A stretch of DNA of 64,000 nt. It comes from Escherichia coli. Lineage in GTDB: Bacteria; Pseudomonadota; Gammaproteobacteria; Enterobacterales; Enterobacteriaceae. Below the pieces are notes generated by a model. It was not told the DNA's origin. It worked only from the letters and a program-made list of their open reading frames with translations, and made no database searches. Position 1 is the first letter of the stretch. Every line of letters starts with the position of its first letter. The stretch lies in the NCBI RefSeq assembly GCF_048403405.1, contig NZ_CP183129.1; one strand, given 5' to 3'. Shown here piece after piece: positions 43,575 to 57,332 of the stretch. A program made the position numbers and the translations under genes.

Positions 43575-44243
43575 ATGACGCAATCCATTTTTCAGGCTCA
43601 ACCCTTTGAATTACCTTTTGATCCGCGCACAACTGCACTGGTCATGATCGACATGCAGCGTGACTTTGTCGAAGCAGGGGGCTTCGGTGAGGCACTGGGC
43701 AATGATGTTTCACTGGTACGCACGGCTATCGCACCATGTACAGAGGTGCTGGCAGCCGCACGTCAAAAAGGAATTATGGTTATTCATACTCGTGAAGGCC
43801 ATCGTGCAGACTTAAGCGACTGCCCGCCAGCCAAACTGACGCGCGGCGGAAAAACCTTTATTGGTGAACCAGGACCGATGGGACGCATTCTGGTCAGAGG
43901 TGAAGCAGGTCATGACATCATTCCTGAACTGTACCCGGTGGCAGGCGAACCGGTGATTGATAAGCCTGGCAAAGGCGCGTTTTATCAAACCGACTTACAT
44001 CTGATTTTGCAAAACCACGGTATCAAGACGCTGATAGTTTGTGGTGTAACAACCGAAGTTTGCGTAACCACCACCGTGCGCGAAGCAAATGATCGTGGCT
44101 ATGAATGCATTATCCCGGAAGATTGTGTCGGCTCCTATTTCCCGGAATTCCAGAAATACGCCCTCGAGATGATCAAAGCACAAGGTGCCATTTTCGGTTG
44201 GGTTACTGATTCCAAAGCCATTATTGCAGGTCTGGAAGGCTAA
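43575..44243 (+). CDS. isochorismatase-family cysteine amidohydrolase (RutB / biuret hydrolase / N-carbamoylsarcosine amidase-like); first gene of accessory module A
   Basis: 222 aa; SD AGGAG; VMIDMQRDF Asp motif and the C-G-V-T-T-E-V-C-V nucleophile region typical of isochorismatase-like hydrolases; exact enzyme not determinable. Confidence 0.78.
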   Translation: MTQSIFQAQPFELPFDPRTTALVMIDMQRDFVEAGGFGEALGNDVSLVRTAIAPCTEVLAAARQKGIMVIHTREGHRADLSDCPPAKLTRGGKTFIGEPGPMGRILVRGEAGHDIIPELYPVAGEPVIDKPGKGAFYQTDLHLILQNHGIKTLIVCGVTTEVCVTTTVREANDRGYECIIPEDCVGSYFPEFQKYALEMIKAQGAIFGWVTDSKAIIAGLEG

Positions 44244-44248
44244 CGCCG

Positions 44249-45109
44249 ATGGCACAGATTACGCTTTGCGCATCGTCGTTGGGATATCTTTTCCCGCAGA
44301 ATGAAACGCAAGATTTACGTCTGCATAGCGCTTTTAAACATGCGGTAAATCTGTATTCAGAAGCGGGAACATTCATCACTCTGTTGTGTGCGCAAACGTA
44401 TCTGAATCTCCCTGATGCTGCCAGAGTCTGGCTACCTGAATGTTGGGACTGGCGAAGAGAGATTGCCCATTCCGATCCCGTTCAGTTAACCCCAGGCTTA
44501 CTGCAGACACCTCGCTTTTGTGTGGCTCTCGATAACGCAACGCTCTGGCAGCCGTCATTTGTGGGAGGAAGGCTGACACTTGAGGCGTTCCCTTTGGTTT
44601 TCCAGCACTACCCAACGATGGCATCGCAACGGCTTTTATTTTGTCTGGAGCATAACGTTCAAAGCACATTGCACCTGCCGGATAGTCTCACGCACCAGGG
44701 ATTAGCGATTATGGAACATCCAGATGCGCTGGAACGCCAGGTGCCACAACTGATCGGCTTTGGTAAAGGCTTAACGCCCGATGGAGATGACTATTTGTTG
44801 GGCTATCTGGCAGCACTCTGGTTATGGCAACTCCCTGCACCACTTGCCGATCATCAATACCGGTTGCAGCAGGCAATTGATCAACATGCGCACAACACCA
44901 CGGATATCAGTCGTCATTATCTGGAGCGTGCGCTTCAGGGACATTTTTCAGAACCGATTTGCCAGTTACTCGCACAACTGGTTGGGAGCGCATCGGCAAT
45001 GACAATCGCATCCTGTGCAGAACAGGTCATGCAATTTGGCGCAACGTCAGGAGTAGATTGCCTTGCAGGAATGCTGCATGGCTTTCGAACCCTGAACACC
45101 ATGAATTGA
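44249..45109 (+). CDS. DUF2877-like protein (YahE/YlbF-type)
   Basis: 286 aa; 5 nt after the upstream stop; G-rich loop IGFGKGLTPDGDD; family assignment is by size and gene context (recalled family), not by search. Confidence 0.55.
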   Translation: MAQITLCASSLGYLFPQNETQDLRLHSAFKHAVNLYSEAGTFITLLCAQTYLNLPDAARVWLPECWDWRREIAHSDPVQLTPGLLQTPRFCVALDNATLWQPSFVGGRLTLEAFPLVFQHYPTMASQRLLFCLEHNVQSTLHLPDSLTHQGLAIMEHPDALERQVPQLIGFGKGLTPDGDDYLLGYLAALWLWQLPAPLADHQYRLQQAIDQHAHNTTDISRHYLERALQGHFSEPICQLLAQLVGSASAMTIASCAEQVMQFGATSGVDCLAGMLHGFRTLNTMN

Positions 45110-45203
45110 TTTCAACCTTTTCTCCTGTAGCTCATTTATGGCGCTACACGGGGATGCTTTGCCCGAATTTTACTATCGGGCGGAATGAAACAGGCGTAAC
45201 AGC

Positions 45204-46763
45204 ATGAAAGTTAAATATAAAGTTTTCAGTAATCTTTATCAGGACTCAGTTTCTCTGATGCAGATTTCCGCGCAAATCAGCAAGTTGCCCGGTATTCAAC
45301 AGGCCTCGGTCGTCATGGGAACACCCAATAATCTCGAACAATTGCGCGATGCGGGTCTGGGTAACGAAATCAACGCCAGTCCCAATGATTTAGTGATTGC
45401 AGTCATGGGTGAAGAAGATATTTGCAATGAAGCACTGGCACTGGCCCAGCAACGTCTGACCAGCAAACCCGATGATGAAACGGATAGTGGCATTAAAACA
45501 CCGGAAAATGTCAGCCTGGACATGGCACTGGAAGCCGAACCCGAAGCCAACCTGGCACTCATTTCTGTACCGGGAGACTACGCCGCCGCCGAAGCAATTA
45601 AAGCGTTAAACCTCGGAATGAACGTGATGATGTTCAGCGATAACGTCAGTATCGCGCAGGAAAAATCCATCAAAATACTTGCCCGAGAACGTCAGCGCAT
45701 CGTAATGGGACCTGACTGTGGAACCGCCATTGTTAACGGCATTCCGTTAGGCTTCGCTAATGTGGTGAAACGCGGAGCAATTGGTGTTATTGGCGCGTCA
45801 GGCACCGGGCTACAGGAAGTGACTTGCCGAATCGACCAGCTCGGAGCGGGTATTTCTCAGGCGCTGGGAACAGGCGGGCATGATCTCAGTGAAGAGATTG
45901 GTGGAATATCGATGCTCTTCGCTTTAGATGCGCTGGCGCAAGACGATGAAACTCGCGTAATTGTGCTGATTTCAAAACCGCCTTCACCGATCGTTGCCCG
46001 GACTATTCTGGAGCGTGCCGAGGCTTGTGGAAAACCCGTGGTGGTGAATTTCCTCGGTGCGAATCCGCATGATCTGGCACGTCCCAATATCACTGCCGCC
46101 ACCACACTTGCCAGCGCCGCCGACATCGCTGTGGCGTTACTGAATGCTCAGCCACTTCCGGCTGTCGAGACCGAGATTTCCTGCGCCGATCTCACAATGT
46201 TACAAAACGCCTGTCAGCGCCTGCCAGCCCATCGCCAGGCGATACGCGGTGTTTTCGCCGGAGGAACCTTCTGCTACGAAGCGCAACTTATCTGCCAGCA
46301 AAAGGGATTCCGCGCCGCCTCCAATACGCCAGTTGCGAGTAATCGTACTCTGGCAAATATCTGGCAAAGCGAAGATCACACGCTGATCGATATGGGCGAC
46401 GATGATTTCACCCGTGGCAAACCGCATCCAATGATCGACCCGACTCTGCGCAATCAACGTCTGCTCAACGAACTCAACGACTCACACACTGCCGTCGTGT
46501 TATTCGACCTGGTACTTGGTTATGGCGCTTCCGCTACACCTGCCAGCGAATTACTGGACCAACTTTCACACATCGACATGAATAACGCACCGTTGCTGAT
46601 TGCGCACGTTTGCGGAACGGAAGCTGATCCGCAAATACGCAGTCAGCAGATAAGCGCACTACAAAATGCGGGCATCATCATTGCCAGCAGCAATGCACAG
46701 GCGGCGCTATGGGCCAGCGTCGTTGCGCAGACTCAGTTGCAGAAAAAGGGGCTAAACGCATGA
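45204..46763 (+). CDS. FdrA-like protein (NDP-forming acyl-CoA synthetase / succinyl-CoA synthetase alpha-like fold)
   Basis: 519 aa; shares recalled FdrA blocks: QDSVSLM, LALISVPG-YAA, NVMMFSDNV, VMGPDCGT, GVIGASGTG, DMGDDDFTRGKPHPMIDPTLRNQ. Confidence 0.7.
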   Translation: MKVKYKVFSNLYQDSVSLMQISAQISKLPGIQQASVVMGTPNNLEQLRDAGLGNEINASPNDLVIAVMGEEDICNEALALAQQRLTSKPDDETDSGIKTPENVSLDMALEAEPEANLALISVPGDYAAAEAIKALNLGMNVMMFSDNVSIAQEKSIKILARERQRIVMGPDCGTAIVNGIPLGFANVVKRGAIGVIGASGTGLQEVTCRIDQLGAGISQALGTGGHDLSEEIGGISMLFALDALAQDDETRVIVLISKPPSPIVARTILERAEACGKPVVVNFLGANPHDLARPNITAATTLASAADIAVALLNAQPLPAVETEISCADLTMLQNACQRLPAHRQAIRGVFAGGTFCYEAQLICQQKGFRAASNTPVASNRTLANIWQSEDHTLIDMGDDDFTRGKPHPMIDPTLRNQRLLNELNDSHTAVVLFDLVLGYGASATPASELLDQLSHIDMNNAPLLIAHVCGTEADPQIRSQQISALQNAGIIIASSNAQAALWASVVAQTQLQKKGLNA

Positions 46764-48184
46764 ATACCTTATTTAATCAGCCTTTGAAGGTTGTGAACGC
46801 GGGACTACACAGTTTTGCTGACAATATTCAACATGCCGGGGGAAGCGCAATTGCACTCAACTGGCAGCCACCAGCACAAGGCGATATTGACGCTGGATTG
46901 GATCTGGCATCGTTGCTACGTCATCCACTGGTAGAAAATGCCAACCAAATCGCCATGACACGTTATCTCGAAGCACAGCCCGTGCTGGTAGATGTCATGC
47001 TCGCTAAAGAGGCCATTCCAGCAATGGCTGAACAAAAACGTATTTTGCACTCTGGCCCGCCGATTGCCTGGGAAGAGATGTGTGGTCCGGTAAAAGGGGC
47101 GATTATTGGTGCCATGCTGTACGAAGGTTGGGCCACCAGCCAGCAAGACGCTGAAAACCAGATAAACGCAGGCGAAATCGACCTTGCCCCTTGTCATCAT
47201 TATCACGCGGTTGGCCCAATGGCTGGCATCATCAGCCCGTCGATGCCGTTATGGGTGGTAGAAAACAAAACCAACGGCCACCGTACTTTTAGCAATTTCA
47301 ATGAAGGTCTGGGTAAGGTTCTCCGTTTTGGCGCCAATAACGATGAAGTTCTCAATCGTCTGGCCTGGATGCGCGATGAACTGGCGCCGGCAATGAAAGC
47401 AGCAATCGCACAACACGGCGAGCTGGAACTCAAGCCATTAATGGCGCAGGCGCTGCATATGGGGGATGAAGTTCATAACCGCAATGCTGCCGCTACCGGT
47501 TTGCTGATTAAGCGCCTGCTCCCGGCATTGCTGGCCTGCTCTCTTCCACAGGAACATATCCAGCGCGTCGTGGCATTTATCACCGGTAACGATCACTTCT
47601 TCCTCAATCTGTCGATGGCTGCCTGTAAAGCAATGATGGATGCCGCCGCCAATGTACCGTTCAGTTCAATGGTTACGGTGATGGCGCGTAACGGGGTGAA
47701 TTTTGGTATTCGGCTTTCCGGTACTGGCGATCGCTGGTTCCAGGCTCCTGCCAATGCCGTTGAAGGTCTGTTCTTCCCCGGATTTGGCGTTGACGACGCT
47801 GCTGCTGACCTGGGTGATAGCGCAATTACTGAAACCGCAGGTGTGGGTGGCTTCGCGATGGCGTCGTCTCCGGCGATCGTCAAATTTGTGGGAGGCACCC
47901 CTGCCGATGCCACCAATAACAGCCGTCGGATGCAAGCCATCACCCTCGGCGGTAACCCCGCATTTACACTTCCAGCCCTCAATTTTGCCCCCACCGCAGC
48001 AGGGATTGATGCGCGTAAAGTGACCGATCGCGGCATTTTACCGGTCATCAATACGGGTATCGCCCACAAACAAGCGGGGGTCGGGCAAATTGGTGCCGGG
48101 ATCACCACTGCGCCGATGGCCTGTTTTGTCGCCGCTGTACGTGCACTGGCGGAGATCGTCGCAAAGGAGAACCATCATGGTTAA
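46760..48184 (+). CDS. DUF1116-like protein (YlbE/YahG-type)
   Basis: 474 aa from MNTLFNQPLKVVNAGLHSF; ATG overlaps the upstream TGA (ATGA coupling); size and position match the YahG/YlbE partner of FdrA-like proteins (recalled). Confidence 0.6.
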   Translation: MNTLFNQPLKVVNAGLHSFADNIQHAGGSAIALNWQPPAQGDIDAGLDLASLLRHPLVENANQIAMTRYLEAQPVLVDVMLAKEAIPAMAEQKRILHSGPPIAWEEMCGPVKGAIIGAMLYEGWATSQQDAENQINAGEIDLAPCHHYHAVGPMAGIISPSMPLWVVENKTNGHRTFSNFNEGLGKVLRFGANNDEVLNRLAWMRDELAPAMKAAIAQHGELELKPLMAQALHMGDEVHNRNAAATGLLIKRLLPALLACSLPQEHIQRVVAFITGNDHFFLNLSMAACKAMMDAAANVPFSSMVTVMARNGVNFGIRLSGTGDRWFQAPANAVEGLFFPGFGVDDAAADLGDSAITETAGVGGFAMASSPAIVKFVGGTPADATNNSRRMQAITLGGNPAFTLPALNFAPTAAGIDARKVTDRGILPVINTGIAHKQAGVGQIGAGITTAPMACFVAAVRALAEIVAKENHHG

Positions 48185-49133
48185 GCCACTGGCTGTTGTC
48201 GCGGTTGGCGGCAATGCGCTCATTCAGGACGAGCAACGCAATAGTATTCCCGATCAATATGTTGCAGTGATGGAAAGCGTGCAGCATATCGTTGATATGG
48301 TTGAAGCCGGATGGGACCTGGTGCTAACCCACGGTAATGGCCCGCAGGTGGGCTTTATTCTGCGCCGCTCTGAACTCGCCAGTAACGAAGTTTCTCCGGT
48401 TCCACTTGATTACGCCGTGGGTGATACACAAGGTGCAATTGGCTACATGTTCCAGAAAGCGCTGCATTACGAATTGGCTCGCCGTGGCATAAACAAACCG
48501 GTAATTGCCCTGGTGACACAAACGCGAGTCAGCCCACATGACGATGCTTTCGCCAACCCCAGTAAACCGATTGGCGCGTTTCTCGATGAAGCAACGGCCC
48601 AACAACGCCAACAACAACTCGGCTGGACGCTGATGGAGGACGCCGGGCGTGGTTGGCGGCGTACAGTTCCCTCTCCTGCACCACTGGAAATTATTGAGCA
48701 CGACACCATCGCTCACCTGGTGCGCCAGGGATATCTGGTTATTGCCTGCGGCGGCGGCGGTATTCCGGTGGTGCGAGACGGGCAACAACTGAAAGGTGTA
48801 GAAGCCGTGATCGATAAAGATCTGGCCTCCGCGCTGCTCGCCAGTCAGTTAGGCGCAGATCTGCTGGTGATCCCCACCGGTGTAGAAAAAGTGGCGATTA
48901 ACTTTGGTACACCACAACAACAGTGGCTCGACGCTATCAGCGTTGCCGAAGCGCAAACGCTGTTGCGGGAAGGTCAGTTTGGTGTCGGCAGTATGCAACC
49001 CAAAGTGGAAGCCATTGTTGATTTCATCAATGCCAGCCAGCAACAAGGCAAACAGGCCAGCGGCCTGATTACTTCACCGCAAACCATAAAAGCAGCCCTG
49101 GCGCATCAGAGCGGTACATGGATAACCCTTTAA
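48177..49133 (+). CDS. carbamate kinase
   Basis: 318 aa from MVKPLAVVAVGGNALIQDEQ; SD AAGGAGA; carbamate/amino-acid kinase motifs VVAVGGNAL and IACGGGGIPV; start overlaps the upstream gene by 8 nt. Confidence 0.85.
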   Translation: MVKPLAVVAVGGNALIQDEQRNSIPDQYVAVMESVQHIVDMVEAGWDLVLTHGNGPQVGFILRRSELASNEVSPVPLDYAVGDTQGAIGYMFQKALHYELARRGINKPVIALVTQTRVSPHDDAFANPSKPIGAFLDEATAQQRQQQLGWTLMEDAGRGWRRTVPSPAPLEIIEHDTIAHLVRQGYLVIACGGGGIPVVRDGQQLKGVEAVIDKDLASALLASQLGADLLVIPTGVEKVAINFGTPQQQWLDAISVAEAQTLLREGQFGVGSMQPKVEAIVDFINASQQQGKQASGLITSPQTIKAALAHQSGTWITL

Positions 49134-49149
49134 ATCTCTGGAGAACACA

Positions 49150-49539
49150 ATGACTACAACGCTTTTAGCCGTTAACGGAACGCTGATGCGCGGCCTGGAA
49201 CTCAACCCAAATATGAAAAAAGCGGGCGGTATTTTTGTCCGTGAAGACCGAACTGACGCCCATTACCGGTTGTGGAGTATTAACGATCGCCATCCGGGAA
49301 TGATTCGCGTGAATGAAGGAGGAACACACGTCGACGTAGAAATTTGGCAATTACCGCTGGCCAGTTTTGCCGCTCTGTTAATGAGCGAACCCGCTGGGCT
49401 GGCAATTGGCAAAATCAAACTTGCCGATGGTAGCGAAGTGCTGGGCGTACTGGCAGAAAACTGGCTGACCGAAGGCCAACGGGAAATTACAGAACTGGGC
49501 GGCTGGCGCAAATACACCGGGCATTTTCATACTGTGTAA
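49150..49539 (+). CDS. small GGCT/AIG2-like protein (gamma-glutamyl cyclotransferase-like fold), function unknown
   Basis: 129 aa; N-terminal LLAVNGTLMRG resembles the YGSL/GTLxxG motif of AIG2/GGCT-like proteins; weak, motif-based. Confidence 0.45.
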   Translation: MTTTLLAVNGTLMRGLELNPNMKKAGGIFVREDRTDAHYRLWSINDRHPGMIRVNEGGTHVDVEIWQLPLASFAALLMSEPAGLAIGKIKLADGSEVLGVLAENWLTEGQREITELGGWRKYTGHFHTV

Positions 49540-49564
49540 CGCGCATTTATAAAGGGAACATACT

Positions 49565-50788
49565 ATGCGTAAAAAAGAAGAGAATCTGAATACGGCATCA
49601 GGATTGCGTATTGCCATGATTTTGCTGGGTATTGCCGTCACACCTGTGCTGTTGTCATCCTCAAGCCTCGGCAATCAACTTTCCAGCGGCAGTTTAATTA
49701 GCGTCGTATTGTTAGGCGGCGTCATTCTGACCTTACTTTCAGCCATCACCATTAGCGTGGGAGAAAAAGCCCGCCTGCCAACGTATGGCATTGTGAAATA
49801 TTCGTTTGGCGAAAAAGGGGCCATCGCCATTAACATTTTGATGGCGATAAGTCTGTTCGGCTGGATTGCCGTTACCGCCAATATGTTTGGTCATTCGGTA
49901 CATGACTTACTGGCTCAACATGGACTGGAAGTTCCACTGGCACTGTTAGTGGCGGCTGGCTGTGTCATTTTTGTCGCCTCTACGGCATTTGGCTTTGCCG
50001 TTCTGGGAAAAATTGCCCAGGTTGCCGTGCCGGTTATCGCGCTGGTGCTGTGTTACATCCTCTATGTGGCAACCCATACCGAAGTGGCAGTACCAGCGGC
50101 GATTGTGGAGATGAATACAGGTGTCGCCGTTTCCACCGTTGTTGGCACCATTATTGTGCTGGTTGCCACACTGCCTGATTTCGGTAGTTTTGTGCATAAC
50201 CGCAAACATGCACTGATTGCCGCAGGCGTGACGTTTCTGGTTGCCTACCCTCTGCTCTACTGGGCGGGTGCAACGCCGAGCGCCATTAGTGGTCAGGGAT
50301 CTTTACTGGGTGCGATGGCGGTATTCGGTGCGGTTCTGCCTGCGGCGCTGTTGTTGATTTTCGCCTGCGTCACCGGTAACGCGGGCAATATGTTCCAGGG
50401 CACGCTGGTGGTTTCCACACTGCTTACCCGCTTTCCCAAATGGCAGATTACCGTGGCGCTGGGTATCCTTTCCGCCATCGTAGGCAGTATGGATATTATG
50501 GCGTGGTTTATTCCGTTTCTGCTGTTCCTGGGTATCGCCACGCCACCCGTTGCCGGAATTTATATCGCTGACTTTTTCCTTTATCGCCGTAATGGCTATC
50601 AAGAGTCAGTGTTAGCCCAGGAGTCACAGATTAAAGTGCTGACATTCGCAGCATGGATCATAGGCGCAGCGGTTGGCTTTATGACCGTAAAAGGCTTATT
50701 CACCCTGACGACGATCCCTTCGGTAGACTCGATTCTGGTGGCATGTATCGCGTATGCGATTCTCAGTCGGGCAAGTCAACACCGCTAA
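49565..50788 (+). CDS. NCS1-family permease (CodB-like nucleobase/cytosine-type transporter)
   Basis: 407 aa, multi-TM; C-terminal block IPPVAGIYIADFFLYRRNGY closely resembles the recalled CodB IPPVGGVIIADYLMNRRRYE. Confidence 0.75.
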   Translation: MRKKEENLNTASGLRIAMILLGIAVTPVLLSSSSLGNQLSSGSLISVVLLGGVILTLLSAITISVGEKARLPTYGIVKYSFGEKGAIAINILMAISLFGWIAVTANMFGHSVHDLLAQHGLEVPLALLVAAGCVIFVASTAFGFAVLGKIAQVAVPVIALVLCYILYVATHTEVAVPAAIVEMNTGVAVSTVVGTIIVLVATLPDFGSFVHNRKHALIAAGVTFLVAYPLLYWAGATPSAISGQGSLLGAMAVFGAVLPAALLLIFACVTGNAGNMFQGTLVVSTLLTRFPKWQITVALGILSAIVGSMDIMAWFIPFLLFLGIATPPVAGIYIADFFLYRRNGYQESVLAQESQIKVLTFAAWIIGAAVGFMTVKGLFTLTTIPSVDSILVACIAYAILSRASQHR

Positions 50789-50865
50789 TTCCTGGGTATA
50801 CTCAGGCAATGATTACGGCTGAATCTGGAGAGATTCAGCCACTTTACCACTGACCAGGGAGCCTT

Positions 50866-51771
50866 ATGTTCATCTCAGACGAAACGCTTCGTGTTATTCA
50901 TCTGGTCGCCAGACACCAGAGCATTACCATCGCAGCCGAGCAGTTAAATAAAGTCCCTTCCGCCATCAGTTACACCATCAAGAAAGCGGAAGAGAGCCTG
51001 GGCGTTGAACTGTTCATTCGTAAGGGACGCTATATTGAATTATCGCCAGCGGGAAGTTACTTCATCGAACATAGCAAAACTATTCTTGGCGACCTGGAAG
51101 CATTAAAGCGCAACACAGTGCTGATTCACGATGGTATTGAGCGTGAACTGACAATTGCGGTAAACAATATTATTCCTGGTAATTTGCTGGTGGCATTTAT
51201 TCGAGATTTTGAACGGCAATTCACATCAACAACACTGACGGTAGATCTTGAGGTATACAACGGCTGCTGGGATGCGCTGTACAGTAAGCGTGCTGATCTG
51301 GTCTACGGTGCTCCTCATGCAGTACCAAGTAGTGAAGGCATCATTAGCGAACCGGTCGGACAAATGGAATGGGATTTTGTCGTCAGCCCACTCCACCCAC
51401 TGGCAGCGAAGCGGCATCCATTAGAAAACAGTGAATTGCGTCATTATCCAGCGGTTTGTATCCGCGATACCTCCGTTAACTTCCCCCCGATGCAAGCCTG
51501 GTTGTTGGAAGGACAAAAACCCATTTTTGTTCCTGACTTCGCTACGGCAATCGCCTTAATAGAACAAAACGTCGGTATTGGTTATATTCCACATCATCTG
51601 GCATTGCCGTTATTGAACAGCGGTAAATTGCTTAAAAAGCCAATGCGCGAACATAAACACGCCACCAAGTTATTTCTTGCCGCTCGTTCCGATGGTATGG
51701 GCAAAGCCTGTCAGTGGTGCATAGAATATTTAAGAAACCCGCAATTAATGACACGATTTGTATTTAATTGA
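50866..51771 (+). CDS. LysR-family transcriptional regulator
   Basis: 301 aa; N-terminal wHTH (SITIAAEQLNKVPSAISYTIKKAEESLGVELFIRKGR) and LysR substrate-binding domain; SD GGGAG. Confidence 0.85.
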   Translation: MFISDETLRVIHLVARHQSITIAAEQLNKVPSAISYTIKKAEESLGVELFIRKGRYIELSPAGSYFIEHSKTILGDLEALKRNTVLIHDGIERELTIAVNNIIPGNLLVAFIRDFERQFTSTTLTVDLEVYNGCWDALYSKRADLVYGAPHAVPSSEGIISEPVGQMEWDFVVSPLHPLAAKRHPLENSELRHYPAVCIRDTSVNFPPMQAWLLEGQKPIFVPDFATAIALIEQNVGIGYIPHHLALPLLNSGKLLKKPMREHKHATKLFLAARSDGMGKACQWCIEYLRNPQLMTRFVFN

Positions 51772-51970: not shown

Positions 51971-52816
51971 ATGAATAACATAACCGTAAAAAGTCTGATT
52001 CAAAGCAATTACCCTACACTGCATCAGGCGGAAAAAAAGGTCGCCGACTATATTCTTAGCCACGCACATGAAGTCGTGAACTATAGTGTCACTGAACTAT
52101 CAGAAAAAAGCCATGCCAGTGAAGCGACTATCGTGCGCACCTGTAAGAAATTAGGTTATCAGGGTTATTACCATTTAAAAATTGCATTAGCAAAAGAAGT
52201 CATTAATCCTGACAATAGCTATCCTGATAATACCGATTTTACCGATATAACGTCGCTGGCCACATTTTTATTAAAAAAACAGGCCGAAGATTTAATACAA
52301 TCAACGCAATTTTTTAATGCCGAAGTGCTTGAGTCCATTCTCAAACTACTTGCTAATTGCGATACTATTTTCTTTTTTGCTGCCGGAAATTCAAACCCTC
52401 TGGCCGTTTATGGTGCTTATAAATTCAGCCAACTCGGATTAAAAACCGTTGTTCACGTCAGCCCGGAAATGCAAATTAATGCGGCATATTCTATGGGGAA
52501 ACGCGACCTGGCGATTGGTATTTCTAACTCTGGCAGCACCAACTTAATGGTCGATATCTTTAAAGTGGTGAAAGAGCGCGGTGCCAAATCCGTTTGTATC
52601 ACTAACTATATTAAATCTCCGTTATCAAAACTCTCCACCCATCAACTCAATACCGCGGTCAGCGATAAAATCTTCTTTGAAGCCTTCGACTCCACTCGCG
52701 TTCCGGCAATGGGCGTTATTGATATGCTGGTGCTGTTGTTTATGTATAAAAACAAGGCGCATTACGAGAAATACCGCACCCGTGAAGAGTTTCTCGGCTC
52801 CCGTTTCAAGGGGTAA
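51971..52816 (+). CDS. RpiR/MurR-family transcriptional regulator (HTH plus SIS domain)
   Basis: 281 aa MNNITVKSLIQSNYPTLHQAEKKVADYILSH...; HTH_6 then SIS sugar-phosphate-binding domain. Confidence 0.85.
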   Translation: MNNITVKSLIQSNYPTLHQAEKKVADYILSHAHEVVNYSVTELSEKSHASEATIVRTCKKLGYQGYYHLKIALAKEVINPDNSYPDNTDFTDITSLATFLLKKQAEDLIQSTQFFNAEVLESILKLLANCDTIFFFAAGNSNPLAVYGAYKFSQLGLKTVVHVSPEMQINAAYSMGKRDLAIGISNSGSTNLMVDIFKVVKERGAKSVCITNYIKSPLSKLSTHQLNTAVSDKIFFEAFDSTRVPAMGVIDMLVLLFMYKNKAHYEKYRTREEFLGSRFKG

Positions 52817-52838
52817 AAGGTCATCCTTTCACCCCTTG
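52807..52838. terminator. bidirectional stem-loop between convergent rpiR-like and transketolase genes
   Basis: CAAGGGGTAAAAGG-tcat-CCTTTCACCCCTTG (14-bp stem, one mismatch); the left arm includes the rpiR stop codon. Confidence 0.55.
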
Positions 52839-52845
52839 TGCAGGT

Positions 52846-54843
52846 TTAGCTATTCAGTAGCTCACGCGCCTGCGCCAGGACATTTTCCGGCGTAAAACCA
52901 AAGTGTTTGAACAACACATTCGCCGGAGCAGACTCACCAAAGCTCGTCATCCCAATGACTTTACCATCCAGACCGACGTAGCGTTCCCAGAATCCGGCGA
53001 TGCTGGCTTCTACCGCCAGACGTTTGCGTACAGCTTTTGGCAATACCGATTCTTTGTACGCCGCATCCTGATTATCGAAACGCTCGGTACACGGCATGGA
53101 AACTACGCGAACTTTACGCCCTTCTTCCGTTAACGCTTTTGCGGCGCTGACCACTAACTCAATCTCTGAACCCGCAGAAATGAGGATCATCTCAGGCTGA
53201 CCGTCACAATCACTCAGTACATAACCACCACGCGCAATCTCTGCCAACTGTGCAGCGGTGCGCGGCTGTTGCGCCAGCGGTTGGCGCGTTAATACCAACG
53301 ACGTTGGGCCATCTTTGCGCTCAATCGCCTGTTGCCAGGCCACCGCCACTTCCACCTGATCGCAACCGCGCCAGGTTTCCATATTCGGCGTCAGACGCAG
53401 CGACGCCAGTTGCTCAACGGGCTGATGTGTCGGGCCGTCTTCGCCCAGGCCGATGGTATCGTGGGTATAAACAAACACCGAGCGGATCTTCATCAGCGCC
53501 GCCATGCGCAGTGCATTACGCGCATATTCCATAAACATCAGGAAAGTACCGCCGTAAGGGATAAACCCACCATGCAGCGCAAGACCGTTCATGATGGCCG
53601 ACATACCAAATTCACGCACGCCATAGGAGATGTAATTCCCCGCCGGATTTTCCCCGGTGAAATCAACCGATTTCTGATGGCGAGTCAGGTTAGAGGGCGA
53701 CAAGTCCGCCGAGCCGCCCATCAGTTCCGGCAGCATATCAGCGAAGTGATTGAGGCATTTCTGGCTGACCTGACGGGTTGCCAGCGCCGCCGGATGGGAT
53801 TGCAGATCGTGCACATATTTCTGCATATTCTCGGCCCAGCCAGCAGGCAAATCACCCTTCATGCGACGAGTAAACTCCGCCGCCAGTTCCGGCCACTGCT
53901 TCGCGTAGTCAGCAAACAGTGCATCCCATTCCTGTTGAACCTGCGCGCCTTTCTCGGTCGCATCCCATTCGGCATAAATTTCACCAGGAATTTCGAAAGG
54001 GGCATACGGCCATTGCAGACGTTCACGCACCAGCGCCACTTCATCTGCACCCAGCGCCGAGCCGTGGCAATCGTGGCTGTTGGCTTTATTTGGTGAACCA
54101 AAACCGATAATCGTTTTGCAGCACAGCAGACTGGGCTTATCCGTGACGCTTTTCGCTTCACGCACCGCAGCATCTACCGCTTCTGGATCGTGACCATCAA
54201 CGCCTTCAATGACATGCCAGCCGTAGGCACGAAAACGGGCAGCCGTATCTTCAGCGAACCAGCCTTCTACGTGACCATCGATCGAAATACCGTTATCGTC
54301 CCAGATAGCAATCAGATTGCCGAGCTTCAGCGTTCCTGCAAGACCACAGGCCTCGTGGGAGATCCCTTCCATCAGGCAGCCATCACCCAAAAATAGCCAT
54401 GTGTGATGATCAACAATATTAAAGCCCGGTTTGTTAAATTCTGCCGCCAGCGCCTTCTCCGCAATCGCCATCCCCACCGCATTAGCTACGCCCTGCCCCA
54501 ACGGGCCGGTGGTGGTTTCAACACCCGGCGTATAACCATATTCTGGATGACCCGGCGTGCGGGAGTGGAGCTGACGAAAGTCGCGAATATCATCCATCGA
54601 CAGGTCGTAGCCTGTAAGATGCAGCAAAGCGTAAATCAACATGGAGCCGTGACCGTTCGACTGAACATAGCGGTCGCGGTTAAACCACTGCGGATTTTTT
54701 GGGTTATGACGCAGGTGACGACGCCAGACCACTTCGGCAATATCCGCCATCCCCATCGGCGCGCCCGGATGACCGGAGTTCGCTTTCTGGATCGCATCAA
54801 CACTTAACATTCGGATGGCATTAGCCAGTAATTGTGAATTCAT
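52846..54843 (-). CDS. transketolase (third paralogue, distinct from TktA/TktB)
   Basis: 665 aa [44 protein letters not shown]...; TPP-binding [10 protein letters not shown]; diverged from recalled TktA/TktB (identity not computed). Confidence 0.93.
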
Positions 54844-54893
54844 ACTTCAGCTCTCTCTGTCTGGCGGGCTGAAACCAGCCCGCTAATCTCGAA

Positions 54894-56402
54894 TTAGTTA
54901 GCACAGGCCACTGTCATTTCTGTCGGGCGCGGTCTGCTCATTACGGTTTTAATTTCGTCGCGCAGGATTTGCGATTTGCCGCCAAATATCACCTGTACAC
55001 CGCCATCACCCAGTTTCACTAACCCCGCAGCCCCCAACTCCTTCAGCCGTTTTTCATTCACTTTCTTATCGTCTACCAGCGCCAGCCTCAGGCGTGTTGC
55101 GCAGGCATCCACATCTTCGATATTGTCGAAACCACCTACTGCTTCGATGATTTGGTATGGACGTTCTTCGCGCGTTAATGTGGTTGCAACGGCAATCTCT
55201 TCATCCTCACGTCCCGGTGTTTTCAGATTCAACTTGCGGATCAGTACCCGAAATACGGTGTAGTAAATCGCTGCATAGCCCGCGCCTGCCAGGAACACCA
55301 GATACCACGGCGTGCGGTTTGGCATAACGCCATTCAGTACGAAATCAATAAGACCGCCAGCAAAAGGATGACCAATGTGCACATTCAGGATGTTCATCAG
55401 CACAAATGAAGTGGCATATAAGAAGATGTGAATGATGTAGAGAACCGGAGCTGCAAACAAAAATGCATATTCCAGCGGCTCCGTAATCCCGGTAACAAAT
55501 GTGGTCAGCGCACCGGAGAGTAAAAGGCCTTTAATCAGCGCCTTACGTTCCGGTTTTGCTTCCTGATACATCGCCAACGCGGCGGCAGGTAACGCAAACA
55601 TCATGATCGGGAAACGACCTGTCATAAACAGCCCCGCCGTCAACGGAACACCGTCGCGCAATTGGGCAAAGAACACCGGAATATCGCCCGTCACCAGTTG
55701 CCCGGATTTGGTCATGTAGTCGCCAAAGTTGTAATAAAACGGCACGTTCCAGATATGATGCAGGCCAAAAGGAATCAGCGAACGTTCGCCAACGGCGTAA
55801 ATAAAGGCCGCGAAGTTCGCGTTATGCCCACTGGTCACCAGCGTTGAAAGCGACGCCAGACCTTTTTGTACCGGTATCCACAGCCACGGCAATAAATAGC
55901 CGACAATAATTGCCGCCACCGCCGTAATAATCGGTACAAAGCGTTTTCCACCGAAGAAACCAAGAAACTGAGGCAATTCAATATTGTGGAAGCGGGTATA
56001 GAGCAGATAAACAAAGATGGCGACAATCAAACCGCCAAACACTCCCGTTTGTAACGTCGGTACCCCGAGGATCATCGCATAGTCACCGTTACTGGCTGCA
56101 ACGGACTCCGCGGTAATGCCAAGTTGCGTTCCCATCGTGGCATTCATGATCATGTAACTGATAATCGCTGAAAGTGATGAAGAACCATCACCTGTCAGGC
56201 CAATCACAATACCGACACAAAACAGCAAAGGAAGGTTGGCGAAAATCAGGCCGCCGCAATTCGCCAGCAGCTCAATGTTAAATGAAATCCCGATGGCTAA
56301 AATCAAACCCGCCGCCGGAAGAATGGCGATTGGTAACATCAGAGCAGAAGAAAATTTCTGCAACTTCTTGAAGTTAAACAAGGATGTTATTTTTTTGCTC
56401 AT
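54894..56402 (-). CDS. PTS glucose-family EIICB component
   Basis: 502 aa; EIIC motif GITEPLEYAF; C-terminal EIIB phospho-cysteine motif DACATRLRLALVD; SD CAGGAGAA; no EIIA domain or gene nearby. Confidence 0.9.
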   Translation of the reverse strand: MSKKITSLFNFKKLQKFSSALMLPIAILPAAGLILAIGISFNIELLANCGGLIFANLPLLFCVGIVIGLTGDGSSSLSAIISYMIMNATMGTQLGITAESVAASNGDYAMILGVPTLQTGVFGGLIVAIFVYLLYTRFHNIELPQFLGFFGGKRFVPIITAVAAIIVGYLLPWLWIPVQKGLASLSTLVTSGHNANFAAFIYAVGERSLIPFGLHHIWNVPFYYNFGDYMTKSGQLVTGDIPVFFAQLRDGVPLTAGLFMTGRFPIMMFALPAAALAMYQEAKPERKALIKGLLLSGALTTFVTGITEPLEYAFLFAAPVLYIIHIFLYATSFVLMNILNVHIGHPFAGGLIDFVLNGVMPNRTPWYLVFLAGAGYAAIYYTVFRVLIRKLNLKTPGREDEEIAVATTLTREERPYQIIEAVGGFDNIEDVDACATRLRLALVDDKKVNEKRLKELGAAGLVKLGDGGVQVIFGGKSQILRDEIKTVMSRPRPTEMTVACAN

Positions 56403-56443
56403 TTTTATTCTCCTGTAGGGTATCGAGCAAATAACGGCGACGA

Positions 56444-57001
56444 CTATTCCAGATTGGCGTGGCGCTTAAACAGTTCACTTTCCGGCGCACCACTTTCAGC
56501 AGCCATCTTCATCACTAATGCATCGGCAATCACCAGCAAAGCTTGCTCATACAACGACGCCATCGGCTGTGCCGAGCGGAAAACAGAATCTTTTTGATTT
56601 TTGGAAGGGGCATTGATTTGCACGATGACGTCGACAAACTCGGTGATAGTGGCGTGTCGATTCGTGGTTAACACCGCCACAGCGCCGCCAAGCTGACGTG
56701 CTTTTTTCGCCAGTGCCACCAGTTGTGCTGTCTCACCGGAAGCGGAAGAAACGATAAACAGATCGCCAGGCCCAAAGTTCGGCGTAATGGTTTCCGTCAG
56801 AAAGTAAACCTCTTTTCCCATATGCATCAGGCGCATGGTGAAGGCTTTCATGGAAAAGCCGGCGCGTCCCAGGCCATAGCAGAAAACGCGCTGGCTTTGC
56901 TGAATAGCGTCGATCAATTTGGTGCAGTCATCCTCACGGATAGAGTCCTTAACGAAGGTTAATTCATTGATGATCTCAGTGATGTACAGCTTTGCGTCCA
57001 T
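56444..57001 (-). CDS. SIS-domain sugar-phosphate isomerase (6-phospho-3-hexuloisomerase-like)
   Basis: 185 aa from MDAKLYITEIINELTFVKD (SD AGGTG upstream; the alternative start at 57013 adds 4 aa); single SIS domain with GLGRAG and SSASGET motifs. Confidence 0.72.
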   Translation of the reverse strand: MDAKLYITEIINELTFVKDSIREDDCTKLIDAIQQSQRVFCYGLGRAGFSMKAFTMRLMHMGKEVYFLTETITPNFGPGDLFIVSSASGETAQLVALAKKARQLGGAVAVLTTNRHATITEFVDVIVQINAPSKNQKDSVFRSAQPMASLYEQALLVIADALVMKMAAESGAPESELFKRHANLE

Positions 57002-57008
57002 TTCACAC

Positions 57009-57214
57009 CTCATGAAATAATTTTCTCAAACACAAAATCTCATGAAATTTTATTTCATTCCAATGCATCAGTATGAAATGTGAAGCTAGTCACAAGAAAG
57101 ATCATAGGTTGATATGTTTTTCATTAAAAAACATATAGATATCAAGTAATTTTTAATATGTGATGGAGAGGCAGATAGAAAAAATGGCGGAAATGACGAA
57201 ATTTATTTCATGAG
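57009..57214 (-). promoter_or_regulatory. control region of the SIS-PTS-transketolase operon: consensus CRP site (TGTGAAGCTAGTCACA, 57078-57093) and repeated CTCATGAAAT motifs (57009-57018, 57039-57048; inverted copy 57205-57214)
   Basis: Motifs read directly in a ~290-bp AT-rich spacer upstream of the first operon gene; a possible -10 TAAAAT on the minus strand at 57052-57047. Confidence 0.55.
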
Positions 57215-57309
57215 AAGGGAATAAAGAAGATTTTCTTAAACAGGGTATGAACTGATATCTGGAATGGTTTACGCAGTATGCTGGGAAGACGTCGCTGTAA
57301 TGAGAAAAG

Positions 57310-57332
57310 ACCGGGTGGTATTACCACCCGGT
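57310..57332 (-). terminator. metE terminator hairpin (probably bidirectional)
   Basis: ACCGGGTGG-tatta-CCACCCGGT, 8 nt after the metE stop, followed by a T-rich run on both strands. Confidence 0.6.

Follow-up and report, generated by a model that had tools for sequence, protein, structure and literature searches.

This study concerns a four-gene module at positions 51971–57001 of a stretch of Escherichia coli DNA of 64,000 nucleotides (NCBI RefSeq assembly GCF_048403405.1, contig NZ_CP183129.1), referred to as the window. The module consists of an operon on the minus strand, encoding a SIS-domain sugar-phosphate isomerase (annotated hxlB), a glucose-family permease of the phosphotransferase system (PTS; EIICB) and a transketolase (Tkt1), together with a convergent gene for an RpiR-family regulator. 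An earlier note on the window, made from the sequence alone, had reported these four genes with the same coordinates, operon order and convergent regulator. The list of open reading frames agreed with it, and the end that it gave for the SIS gene (57001) matched the start in RefSeq. The family identities that it had proposed were borne out by curated profile models (TIGR00232, TIGR02002, TIGR03127 and MurR/RpiR). The genes and associated features were located as follows:

51971–52816, plus strand: gene of an RpiR-family regulator (HTH_6 and SIS domains, 281 amino acids), assigned from the open reading frame and the MurR/RpiR, HexR and AlsR models; convergent with tkt1
52846–54843, minus strand: tkt1, third transketolase (665 amino acids), assigned from TIGR00232 and residue conservation; last gene of the operon
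54894–56402, minus strand: glucose-family PTS EIICB (502 amino acids) without a IIA domain, assigned from TIGR02002 and IIB/IIC motifs
56444–57001, minus strand: single-SIS-domain sugar-phosphate isomerase resembling 6-phospho-3-hexuloisomerase (PHI), annotated hxlB (185 amino acids), assigned from TIGR03127; first gene of the operon
57002–57309, minus strand: AT-rich leader and predicted promoter of hxlB-EIICB-tkt1, between the metE terminator hairpin and the hxlB start
57044–57056, no strand assigned: candidate RpiR operator O1, GAAAT-TTT-ATTTC, approximately 45 bp upstream of the hxlB start
57198–57209, no strand assigned: candidate RpiR operator O2, GAAAT-TT-ATTTC, the second of two palindrome matches in the window
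57310–57332, minus strand: intrinsic terminator of metE, bounding the module on the right in this strain

At its full extent, the SIS open reading frame covered 56444–57013 on the minus strand (189 amino acids), vs. 185 amino acids from the RefSeq start at 57001, ahead of which lies a GAGGTG ribosome-binding site. The minus-strand genes are separated by short gaps of 41 bp (hxlB/EIICB) and 50 bp (EIICB/tkt1), and the stop codons of the convergent rpiR and tkt1 genes are 29 bp apart. An 8-bp inverted repeat (CAAGGGGT ... ACCCCTTG, 16-nt loop) at 52807–52838 covers the end of rpiR and this 29-bp gap to the tkt1 stop, and could be a weak bidirectional terminator; it was not reported by the terminator scan of the window. 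The metE terminator directly follows the metE stop codon and has perfect 11-bp arms (the scan counted 10 pairs, 7 of them G-C) followed by a run of T. Because metE ends at this strong hairpin, hxlB-EIICB-tkt1 must have its own promoter within 57002–57309.

The locus is the already published tkt1 genomic island of phylogroup-B2 extraintestinal pathogenic E. coli (ExPEC) and not a new discovery. Li et al. (2012; BMC Microbiol 12:51, PMC3349570) described it as a 16-kb insertion between metE and ysgA in strains APEC O1, CFT073 and 536 that K-12 does not have, and listed among its content the transketolase-like tkt1, a glucose-type IIBC, regulators, a permease and a carbamate-kinase-like gene. Structurally, nothing differs here: the module forms the right half of the 16-kb island, whose gene order is ysgA, cysteine hydrolase, DUF2877, fdrA, DUF1116, arcC, allophanate-hydrolase-related, NCS1 permease, LysR, RpiR, tkt, ptsG, hxlB, metE. 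In a PCR survey of B2 ExPEC, tkt1 was present in 85–99% and the complete island in 70–94% (PMC3349570), and the island has been associated with invasive ExPEC (PMC3349570). It is also the region named 'GR 29' in strain BEN2908, and its SIS_PHI, PTS and RpiR genes were still classed as uncharacterised in a 2026 paper (PMC12928451). The hxlB gene has been flagged as a marker of those uropathogenic E. coli (UPEC) clades that carry a risk of necrotizing enterocolitis (NEC; PMC4819403). A 5.5-kb query spanning the module was 100% identical to E. coli TUM14771, and the module was found in 1135 of 5426 complete E. coli genomes (approximately 21%), Nissle 1917 among them. The earlier note had not recognised a characterised K-12 operon here, which was correct in that K-12 lacks the module but missed its publication as the tkt1 island (PMC3349570, PMC12928451). 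The operon has been described, but the literature on the island names no sugar substrate. Neither does this literature treat hxlB-EIICB-tkt1 and rpiR as one pathway, nor set the SIS enzyme apart from the PHIs of the ribulose monophosphate (RuMP) pathway.

Tkt1 is a full-length, three-domain protein that scored 1009.3 bits against TIGR00232 (cutoff 682.25) and was 68.7% identical to K-12 TktA over 659 residues; its Klebsiella orthologue carries the Pfam domains Transketolase_N, Transket_pyr and Transketolase_C. Tkt1 and three other SIS-linked transketolases matched TktA at every position checked for thiamine diphosphate (ThDP) and Mg binding, catalysis and phosphate binding (22/22), including H26, H66, H100, D155, N185, I187, H261, R358, S385, E411, H461, D469, H473 and R520. 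Judged by its residues, Tkt1 looks active as a transketolase. The gene shared approximately 68% nucleotide identity with the resident E. coli transketolase genes over 98% of its length, and Li et al. were mistaken in stating that it shows no similarity to tktA at the nucleotide level. Transketolase genes occupied three places in tkt1-positive genomes and two in the others, which agreed with the earlier note in making Tkt1 a third transketolase, paralogous to TktA and TktB. Tkt1 has the same length, three-domain architecture and catalytic residues as these two enzymes but, unlike them, belongs to a PTS operon and is accessory, being present in approximately 21% of complete genomes.

Four substitutions relative to TktA (A383S, L389R, P493G and N522P) were common to Tkt1 and the three other SIS-linked transketolases, and three of them are near the phosphate-binding residues S385 and R520 in sequence. 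They were absent from the 8QMF enzyme too, as read by eye from the alignment, the scripted comparison having been made with TktA alone. The grouping of these proteins as a Tkt1 clade is based on four sequences and the shared substitutions. In a protein homologue search with Tkt1, which gave at least 120 matches, those listed all had an identity of 98% or more and the named sources were all E. coli, so that the search did not show where the Tkt1 lineage originated.

The SIS protein passed the HxlB model TIGR03127 (205.2 bits, cutoff 160), was 40% identical to Bacillus subtilis HxlB/YckF (PDB 1M3S) and retained the HxlB motifs MRLMHMG, SGSGET, QPMxSLxEQ and HANLE. Scanning of metagenomes with an alignment of SIS proteins yielded 79 loci, which were annotated by tblastn with reference proteins; at many of them, the sequence that we took to be a hexulose-phosphate synthase (HPS) reference matched strongly just upstream of the SIS gene. 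The neighbour-joining tree of the SIS proteins placed that of E. coli in a clade of 19 distinct sequences, none of which (0/19) had an adjacent synthase gene. Members of this clade came from four phyla. Nearly all members with enough flanking sequence adjoined PTS genes, a transketolase or a trio of enzyme genes described below. In the sister clade of 36 sequences, B. subtilis HxlB included, the synthase was almost always directly upstream where the flank sufficed. An HPS gene was not found in the island either. By its gene context, the SIS enzyme is probably not a RuMP enzyme, and its substrate is probably not derived from formaldehyde fixation. The description as 6-phospho-3-hexuloisomerase-like in the earlier note therefore holds at the level of the family (TIGR03127), while the RuMP role is doubtful, with no synthase in the island or the clade. 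This is also where the module departs from the HxlA-HxlB pair of the RuMP pathway in B. subtilis and methylotrophs: there the isomerase has a synthase partner, whereas the E. coli SIS gene has none beside it and encodes a protein of a separate clade that is linked to PTS or ABC transporters and transketolase.

Consistent differences between the two SIS clades were found at four positions (L44/A, A47/S, Q93/S and G106/A), two of them in the G(L/A)GR(A/S)G loop, vs. 32 positions that were conserved to at least 95% across both clades and were all kept in the E. coli protein. Since the clades differ at four positions and share 32, phosphosugar keto-isomerisation is probably retained. A 1646-bp human-gut contig (L035) that appeared to join HPS, SIS and EIICB genes was rejected as a chimera of 1.27x coverage, joined at MRLMHMG: the first approximately 55 residues of its SIS hybrid looked Firmicute-like and the remainder, from MRLMHMG on, was of the E. 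coli type.

The permease narrowly passed the PTS-II-BC-glcB model TIGR02002 (608.6 bits, cutoff 591.8) and remained below the cutoff of the E. coli PtsG equivalog model NF008301 (442.9 vs. 647 bits). Its gene is named ptsG in RefSeq, and the protein is 44% identical to K-12 PtsG (PMC12928451). Residues 389–474 matched TIGR00826 (EIIB), and the Klebsiella orthologue carries the Pfam domains PTS_EIIC and PTS_EIIB. Invariant in four EIICB orthologues were DACATRLRL, which contains the IIB phosphorylation site Cys434, GITEP in the IIC domain (residues 305–309) and His215-His216. The RefSeq annotation of the identical genome showed no EIIA gene in the island, in line with the absence of a cognate EIIA in the earlier note. 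That note had presumed a dependence on EIIA-Glc (Crr), and the relatives are in favour of this: one locus (L016) has a separate PTS_EIIA_1 gene, and the versions in Enterococcus and actinobacteria have a fused IIA domain. The requirement for a partner of the EIIA-Glc type, with Crr serving in E. coli, is thereby supported. Beside the hxlB-EIICB genes of Serratia ficaria, directly upstream of them, we found an SgrR paralogue (L004, 6071–7762; 240 bits vs. a cutoff of 476). SgrR is the regulator of the sugar-phosphate stress response, and its paralogue at this place hints that the substrate of EIICB can cause such stress. The 555-kb contig CACSKA010000003.1 (titled Chryseobacterium sp. 18061; L013) also encoded an EIICB, with 90% identity to that of E. 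coli; this contig is probably mislabelled or enterobacterial contamination.

The RpiR protein gave full-length matches to the MurR/RpiR, HexR and AlsR models (E 1e-23 to 1e-31), and its orthologues in Klebsiella, Serratia and Enterococcus have the Pfam domains HTH_6 and SIS. The palindrome GAAAT-N2-4-ATTTC occurred twice in the 64-kb window, where 0.37 matches were expected, both times upstream of hxlB (57044–57056 and 57198–57209). Klebsiella, Serratia, Enterococcus, Sebaldella and four further loci (L033, L044, L045 and L056) have the same palindrome 11–56 bp upstream of their SIS genes, and the palindrome-bearing loci that extended far enough all encoded an RpiR orthologue. Because it is conserved as an upstream footprint, this palindrome is the probable RpiR operator. 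The nonamer ATTTCATGA had all three of its copies in the window within 57002–57309. The junction between hxlB and metE is variable among strains: Nissle-type strains matched the query only to approximately 57101, and in place of the distal promoter region (57101–57309) they have other DNA that runs on to a tssD (Hcp) pseudogene containing an internal stop (L018, 6704–7190). O2 is absent from these strains and is accordingly not universal.

In E. coli, purifying selection acts on all four genes. The alleles of the window and those of Nissle had 44 synonymous and 8 non-synonymous differences, with dN/dS values of 0.044 (rpiR), 0.067 (tkt1), 0 (EIICB) and 0.059 (hxlB). Compared with Klebsiella, dN/dS was 0.015–0.028 where it could be estimated.

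Related modules occurred in several other groups of bacteria. Klebsiella has all four genes, with amino-acid identities of 87% (Tkt), 90% (EIICB), 80% (SIS) and 78% (RpiR). In Sebaldella (Fusobacteria), the order is SIS-TktN-TktC-EIICB-RpiR, with an EIICB 70% identical to the E. coli protein and a transketolase that is split and unrelated, and the Enterococcus locus combines genes for an aldo-keto reductase (AKR), SIS, TktN, TktC, a BglF-type EIIBCA and RpiR. In two proteobacterial metagenome loci, Tkt-SIS adjoins an ABC sugar transporter and ROK genes. The operon in Glutamicibacter and Rhodococcus begins with the SIS gene and also comprises a fused-IIA PTS, HPr, EI and the trio, that is, genes for a GFO_IDH_MocA oxidoreductase, an AP_endonuc_2 TIM-barrel protein and a PcaD-like alpha/beta-hydrolase. 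The trio was located at L002 13211–16558, L004 647–5872, L012 10782–13530, L015 13830–16587 and L016 5942–8669, and accompanied the PHI-like gene in Proteobacteria, Actinobacteria and unassigned metagenome contigs. A glycerate kinase was found with it, of the MOFRL type in Klebsiella and Serratia and of the GlxK type in L016 and L045. The L016 locus carries, on one strand, AP_endonuc_2, GFO, hydrolase, SIS, TktN, TktC, EIICB, RpiB, an EIIA-Glc-type gene and RpiR, and L041 also has a psicose 3-epimerase, a tagatose-kinase-like and a GatZ-like gene. Modules of PTS, SIS and Tkt without the trio were found in Sebaldella, Enterococcus, L040, L042, L044, L047 and L056, and several of these also encode RpiR. 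The trio unit of Klebsiella and Serratia has rpiR as its distal gene, while the E. coli rpiR is solitary, behind an AT-rich junction.

A further contig scan with an EIICB alignment used overly strict peptide patterns and, with 2 loci recovered, gave no picture of the distribution. Searches of PDB and NCBIfam with the trio enzymes returned distant matches only (inositol dehydrogenases, DgpA, a psicose/L-ribulose-5-P 3-epimerase-like fold and PcaD-like hydrolases), with no characterised relative and nothing that allowed a function to be given to them. A literature search yielded no characterised pathway joining a PHI, a transketolase, a PTS and a GFO/MocA enzyme, and nothing relevant on the catabolism of 1,5-anhydroglucitol. 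Around the same isomerase, both transporter and transketolase have undergone non-orthologous replacement, which argues for a real pathway dependent on transketolase and for a functional coupling of isomerase, 6-phosphorylating uptake and transketolase. The E. coli module would then represent a minimal version of a larger pathway. The earlier note had drawn a scheme of import, isomerisation and transketolase-mediated entry into central metabolism; the comparative linkage of the three functions supported their coupling and left this scheme as the best, still hypothetical model.

In the pathway that we propose, and to which we assign about an even chance, the module is a self-contained catabolic operon under the control of RpiR. 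EIICB would import and phosphorylate the substrate, most likely a rare ketohexose or a hexose resembling glucose. From homology, the phosphoryl group would pass from EI via HPr and EIIA-Glc (Crr, encoded elsewhere) to Cys434 of the IIB domain. The PHI-like isomerase may then shift the carbonyl group of the sugar 6-phosphate via an enediol, in the manner of the 3-ketose/2-ketose chemistry of its family, to give a 2-ketose 6-phosphate, presumably fructose-6-P or a close analogue. Tkt1 would transfer the C1-C2 ketol unit of this product to an aldose phosphate and deliver xylulose-5-P and a tetrose-4-P to the non-oxidative pentose-phosphate pathway. Like its analogues MurR, HexR and RpiR/AlsR, the regulator would repress the operon, acting at GAAAT-N2-4-ATTTC in the hxlB promoter, and would be released once its SIS domain binds a sugar phosphate. 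In this model, we infer the substrate, the order of the isomerase and transketolase steps and the direction of flux. Support for 1,5-anhydroglucitol, 3-keto-glucose, glucosylglycerate, heptoses or sedoheptulose, and rare ketohexoses as substrates amounted at most to hints from gene context. A scheme for the trio, with oxidation to a diketone and hydrolytic C-C cleavage to glycerate and a triose or tetrose phosphate, was set aside as speculation that is inapplicable to the trio-less E. coli.

Several observations weigh against this proposal. On Biolog plates, a tkt1 deletion mutant showed no difference in carbon sources from the wild type (PMC3349570), although no carbon phenotype is to be expected of it, because TktA and TktB can substitute. 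Over-expression of tkt1 from pBAD-tkt1 failed to restore growth on L-arabinose to BJ502, a tktA mutant of K-12 (PMC3349570). The module of Serratia ficaria consists of hxlB-EIICB and rpiR without a tkt gene, and a dedicated transketolase would be unnecessary if the product of the isomerase were simply fructose-6-P. A scan of the region upstream of hxlB for the sigma-70 consensus found no promoter-like site. No close DNA match to the Klebsiella trio, which many relatives have joined to the module, was detected in the complete E. coli genomes, and the E. coli version may be incomplete. Finally, frameshift alleles of hxlB occur in public E. coli data (P0019, P0027, P0034 and P0004), and three of the at least four variants share the out-of-frame tail ...KILFSARH(S/N)RWRRCMSKLCW. 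These may be real pseudogenes or homopolymer errors of sequencing or assembly; if they are real, the gene is lost in some strains.

We also put forward, tentatively and without calling it probable, a wider interpretation in which the E. coli operon is the minimal core of an undescribed sugar pathway spread over several phyla. This pathway would be built around a clade of PHI-like enzymes that departed from the RuMP pathway and always occurs with sugar-6-phosphorylating uptake, and usually with a transketolase. Fuller versions would add the trio, accompanied at a few loci by RpiB or glycerate kinase. Such a pathway would act on a sugar from the host or the diet that standard phenotype plates do not include (for instance a heptose, a rare ketohexose or a 3-keto- or anhydro-hexose), and use of this sugar may give B2 ExPEC an advantage in their niche.

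The absence of the trio raises the alternative that the module is a truncated remnant of an ancestral pathway that needed the trio and glycerate kinase, contributes little in E. coli and is common because it travels with the B2 lineage. The linkage of the trio to the SIS gene in Klebsiella, Serratia, Glutamicibacter, Rhodococcus, L010, L016, L041 and L045 would fit this, as would the solitary position of the E. coli rpiR behind an AT-rich junction instead of at the end of a trio unit, the count of zero complete E. coli genomes matching the Klebsiella trio DNA, the several independent hxlB frameshift alleles and the missing Biolog carbon phenotype (PMC3349570). We nevertheless consider a remnant unlikely: the dN/dS values of 0–0.07 between E. 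coli alleles indicate continuing purifying selection on the four genes, the PTS-SIS-Tkt core recurs without the trio in Sebaldella, Enterococcus and the five loci named above (L040, L042, L044, L047 and L056) and is thus a functional unit, and a tkt1 transposon mutant lost 2- to 1000-fold in competition in chickens, that is, was attenuated (PMC3349570). It also seems improbable to us that the substrate is glucose itself or another very common hexose and the operon a second glucose PTS, coupled to additional capacity for isomerase and transketolase, that feeds the non-oxidative pentose-phosphate pathway in the host, supplying pentoses and erythrose-4-P. EIICB does pass TIGR02002 (608.6 vs. 591.8) and bears the RefSeq name ptsG, Tkt1 is a canonical transketolase by sequence, and the locus is tied to invasive ExPEC and to NEC-risk UPEC clades (PMC3349570, PMC4819403). 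However, the permease fails the PtsG equivalog cutoff (442.9 vs. 647) with 44% identity to PtsG, neither a dedicated RpiR nor an isomerase of the PHI type instead of the phosphoglucose isomerase (PGI) type would be expected, and relatives stand in contexts of rare ketohexoses, as shown by the psicose 3-epimerase, tagatose-kinase-like and GatZ-like genes of L041.

Li et al. concluded from the failure to complement BJ502 that the activity of Tkt1 as a transketolase is very low (PMC3349570), and their reading that it is essentially inactive as a transketolase and works in the nitrogen metabolism of dipeptides has in its favour that the tkt1 mutant was impaired on Pro-Ala and Phe-Ala as nitrogen sources, a defect that was reproducible and complementable (PMC3349570). 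At face value, the result with BJ502 contradicts the transketolase activity assumed in the earlier note, but this one published test is indirect, drawn from growth complementation, and conflicts with the conserved catalytic residues. The identity of 68.7% to TktA and the conservation of all 22 checked residues argue against little transketolase activity. Moreover, tkt1 is part of a sugar-PTS operon whose equivalents in other phyla use unrelated, split transketolases, and the claim of no nucleotide similarity was in error (approximately 68% over 98% of the length). The tktA mutant of APEC O1 still grew on arabinose (PMC3349570), so that this strain must hold some other transketolase activity. 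Taken together, we regard the dipeptide reading as very unlikely. Scarcely credible, in our view, is a true RuMP function of the SIS enzyme, with an operon that assimilates or detoxifies formaldehyde. The protein passes the HxlB equivalog model and keeps nearly all residues conserved in HPS-linked PHIs, and RuMP clusters elsewhere also hold a transketolase (L069, L079, L086 and L087). Against this, HPS is missing from the island and from the neighbourhood of 19/19 clade members, the only apparent HPS-SIS-EIICB contig was the low-coverage chimera L035, and a PTS transporter has no role in formaldehyde fixation.

Among known systems, murQP-murR and glv-type PTS operons resemble the module in having a glucose-family permease without its own IIA. 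They also share the combination of a SIS-fold enzyme acting on a sugar 6-phosphate with an RpiR/MurR regulator whose SIS domain senses a sugar phosphate. The SIS enzyme of the module belongs to the PHI family, however, and not to MurQ; the etherase model NF003915 missed it and weakly matched the regulator. The permease is PtsG-like with C-B domain order, unlike MurP with its IIBC order, and the MurP model NF007152 matched the IIB domain only (41 bits vs. 516). Furthermore, a transketolase belongs to the operon here. The concept of a dedicated isomerase that makes a ketose for cleavage by a pathway-specific transketolase is the same in the sulfoquinovose sulfo-TK route and the D-apiose/apulose-4-P route, and operons of these types use split TktN/TktC enzymes. 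To our knowledge, neither route involves a PTS or a PHI-family isomerase.

The left half of the island (43575–51771) is a separate, LysR-linked module of nitrogen type. It encodes a RutB-like cysteine hydrolase, DUF2877, FdrA-like and DUF1116 proteins, a carbamate kinase, an allophanate-hydrolase-related protein and an NCS1 (cytosine-type) permease, and constitutes a paralogue set of the fdrA-ylbE-ylbF-ybcF region of K-12. The top model scores of its LysR gene were with PunR and AllS. Open reading frames of the island resemble genes of Photobacterium profundum (PMC12928451).

The tkt1 island is one of the metabolic islands that separate B2 ExPEC from commensal and K-12-type strains, and its B2 carriers include uropathogenic, neonatal-meningitis, avian and NEC-associated strains as well as the probiotic Nissle 1917. 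The comparative data give reasons to doubt the conclusion of 2012 that its transketolase is inactive, and the database names "hxlB", "ptsG" and "glucose-specific" are likely over-specific. A clade of PHI-like enzymes that is divorced from formaldehyde fixation and repeatedly coupled to transketolase offers a concrete means of testing an orphan pathway that Klebsiella, Enterococcus, actinobacteria and Fusobacteria have as well. In E. coli, the identity of the substrate would show which host or dietary nutrient is exploited by the B2 lineages.

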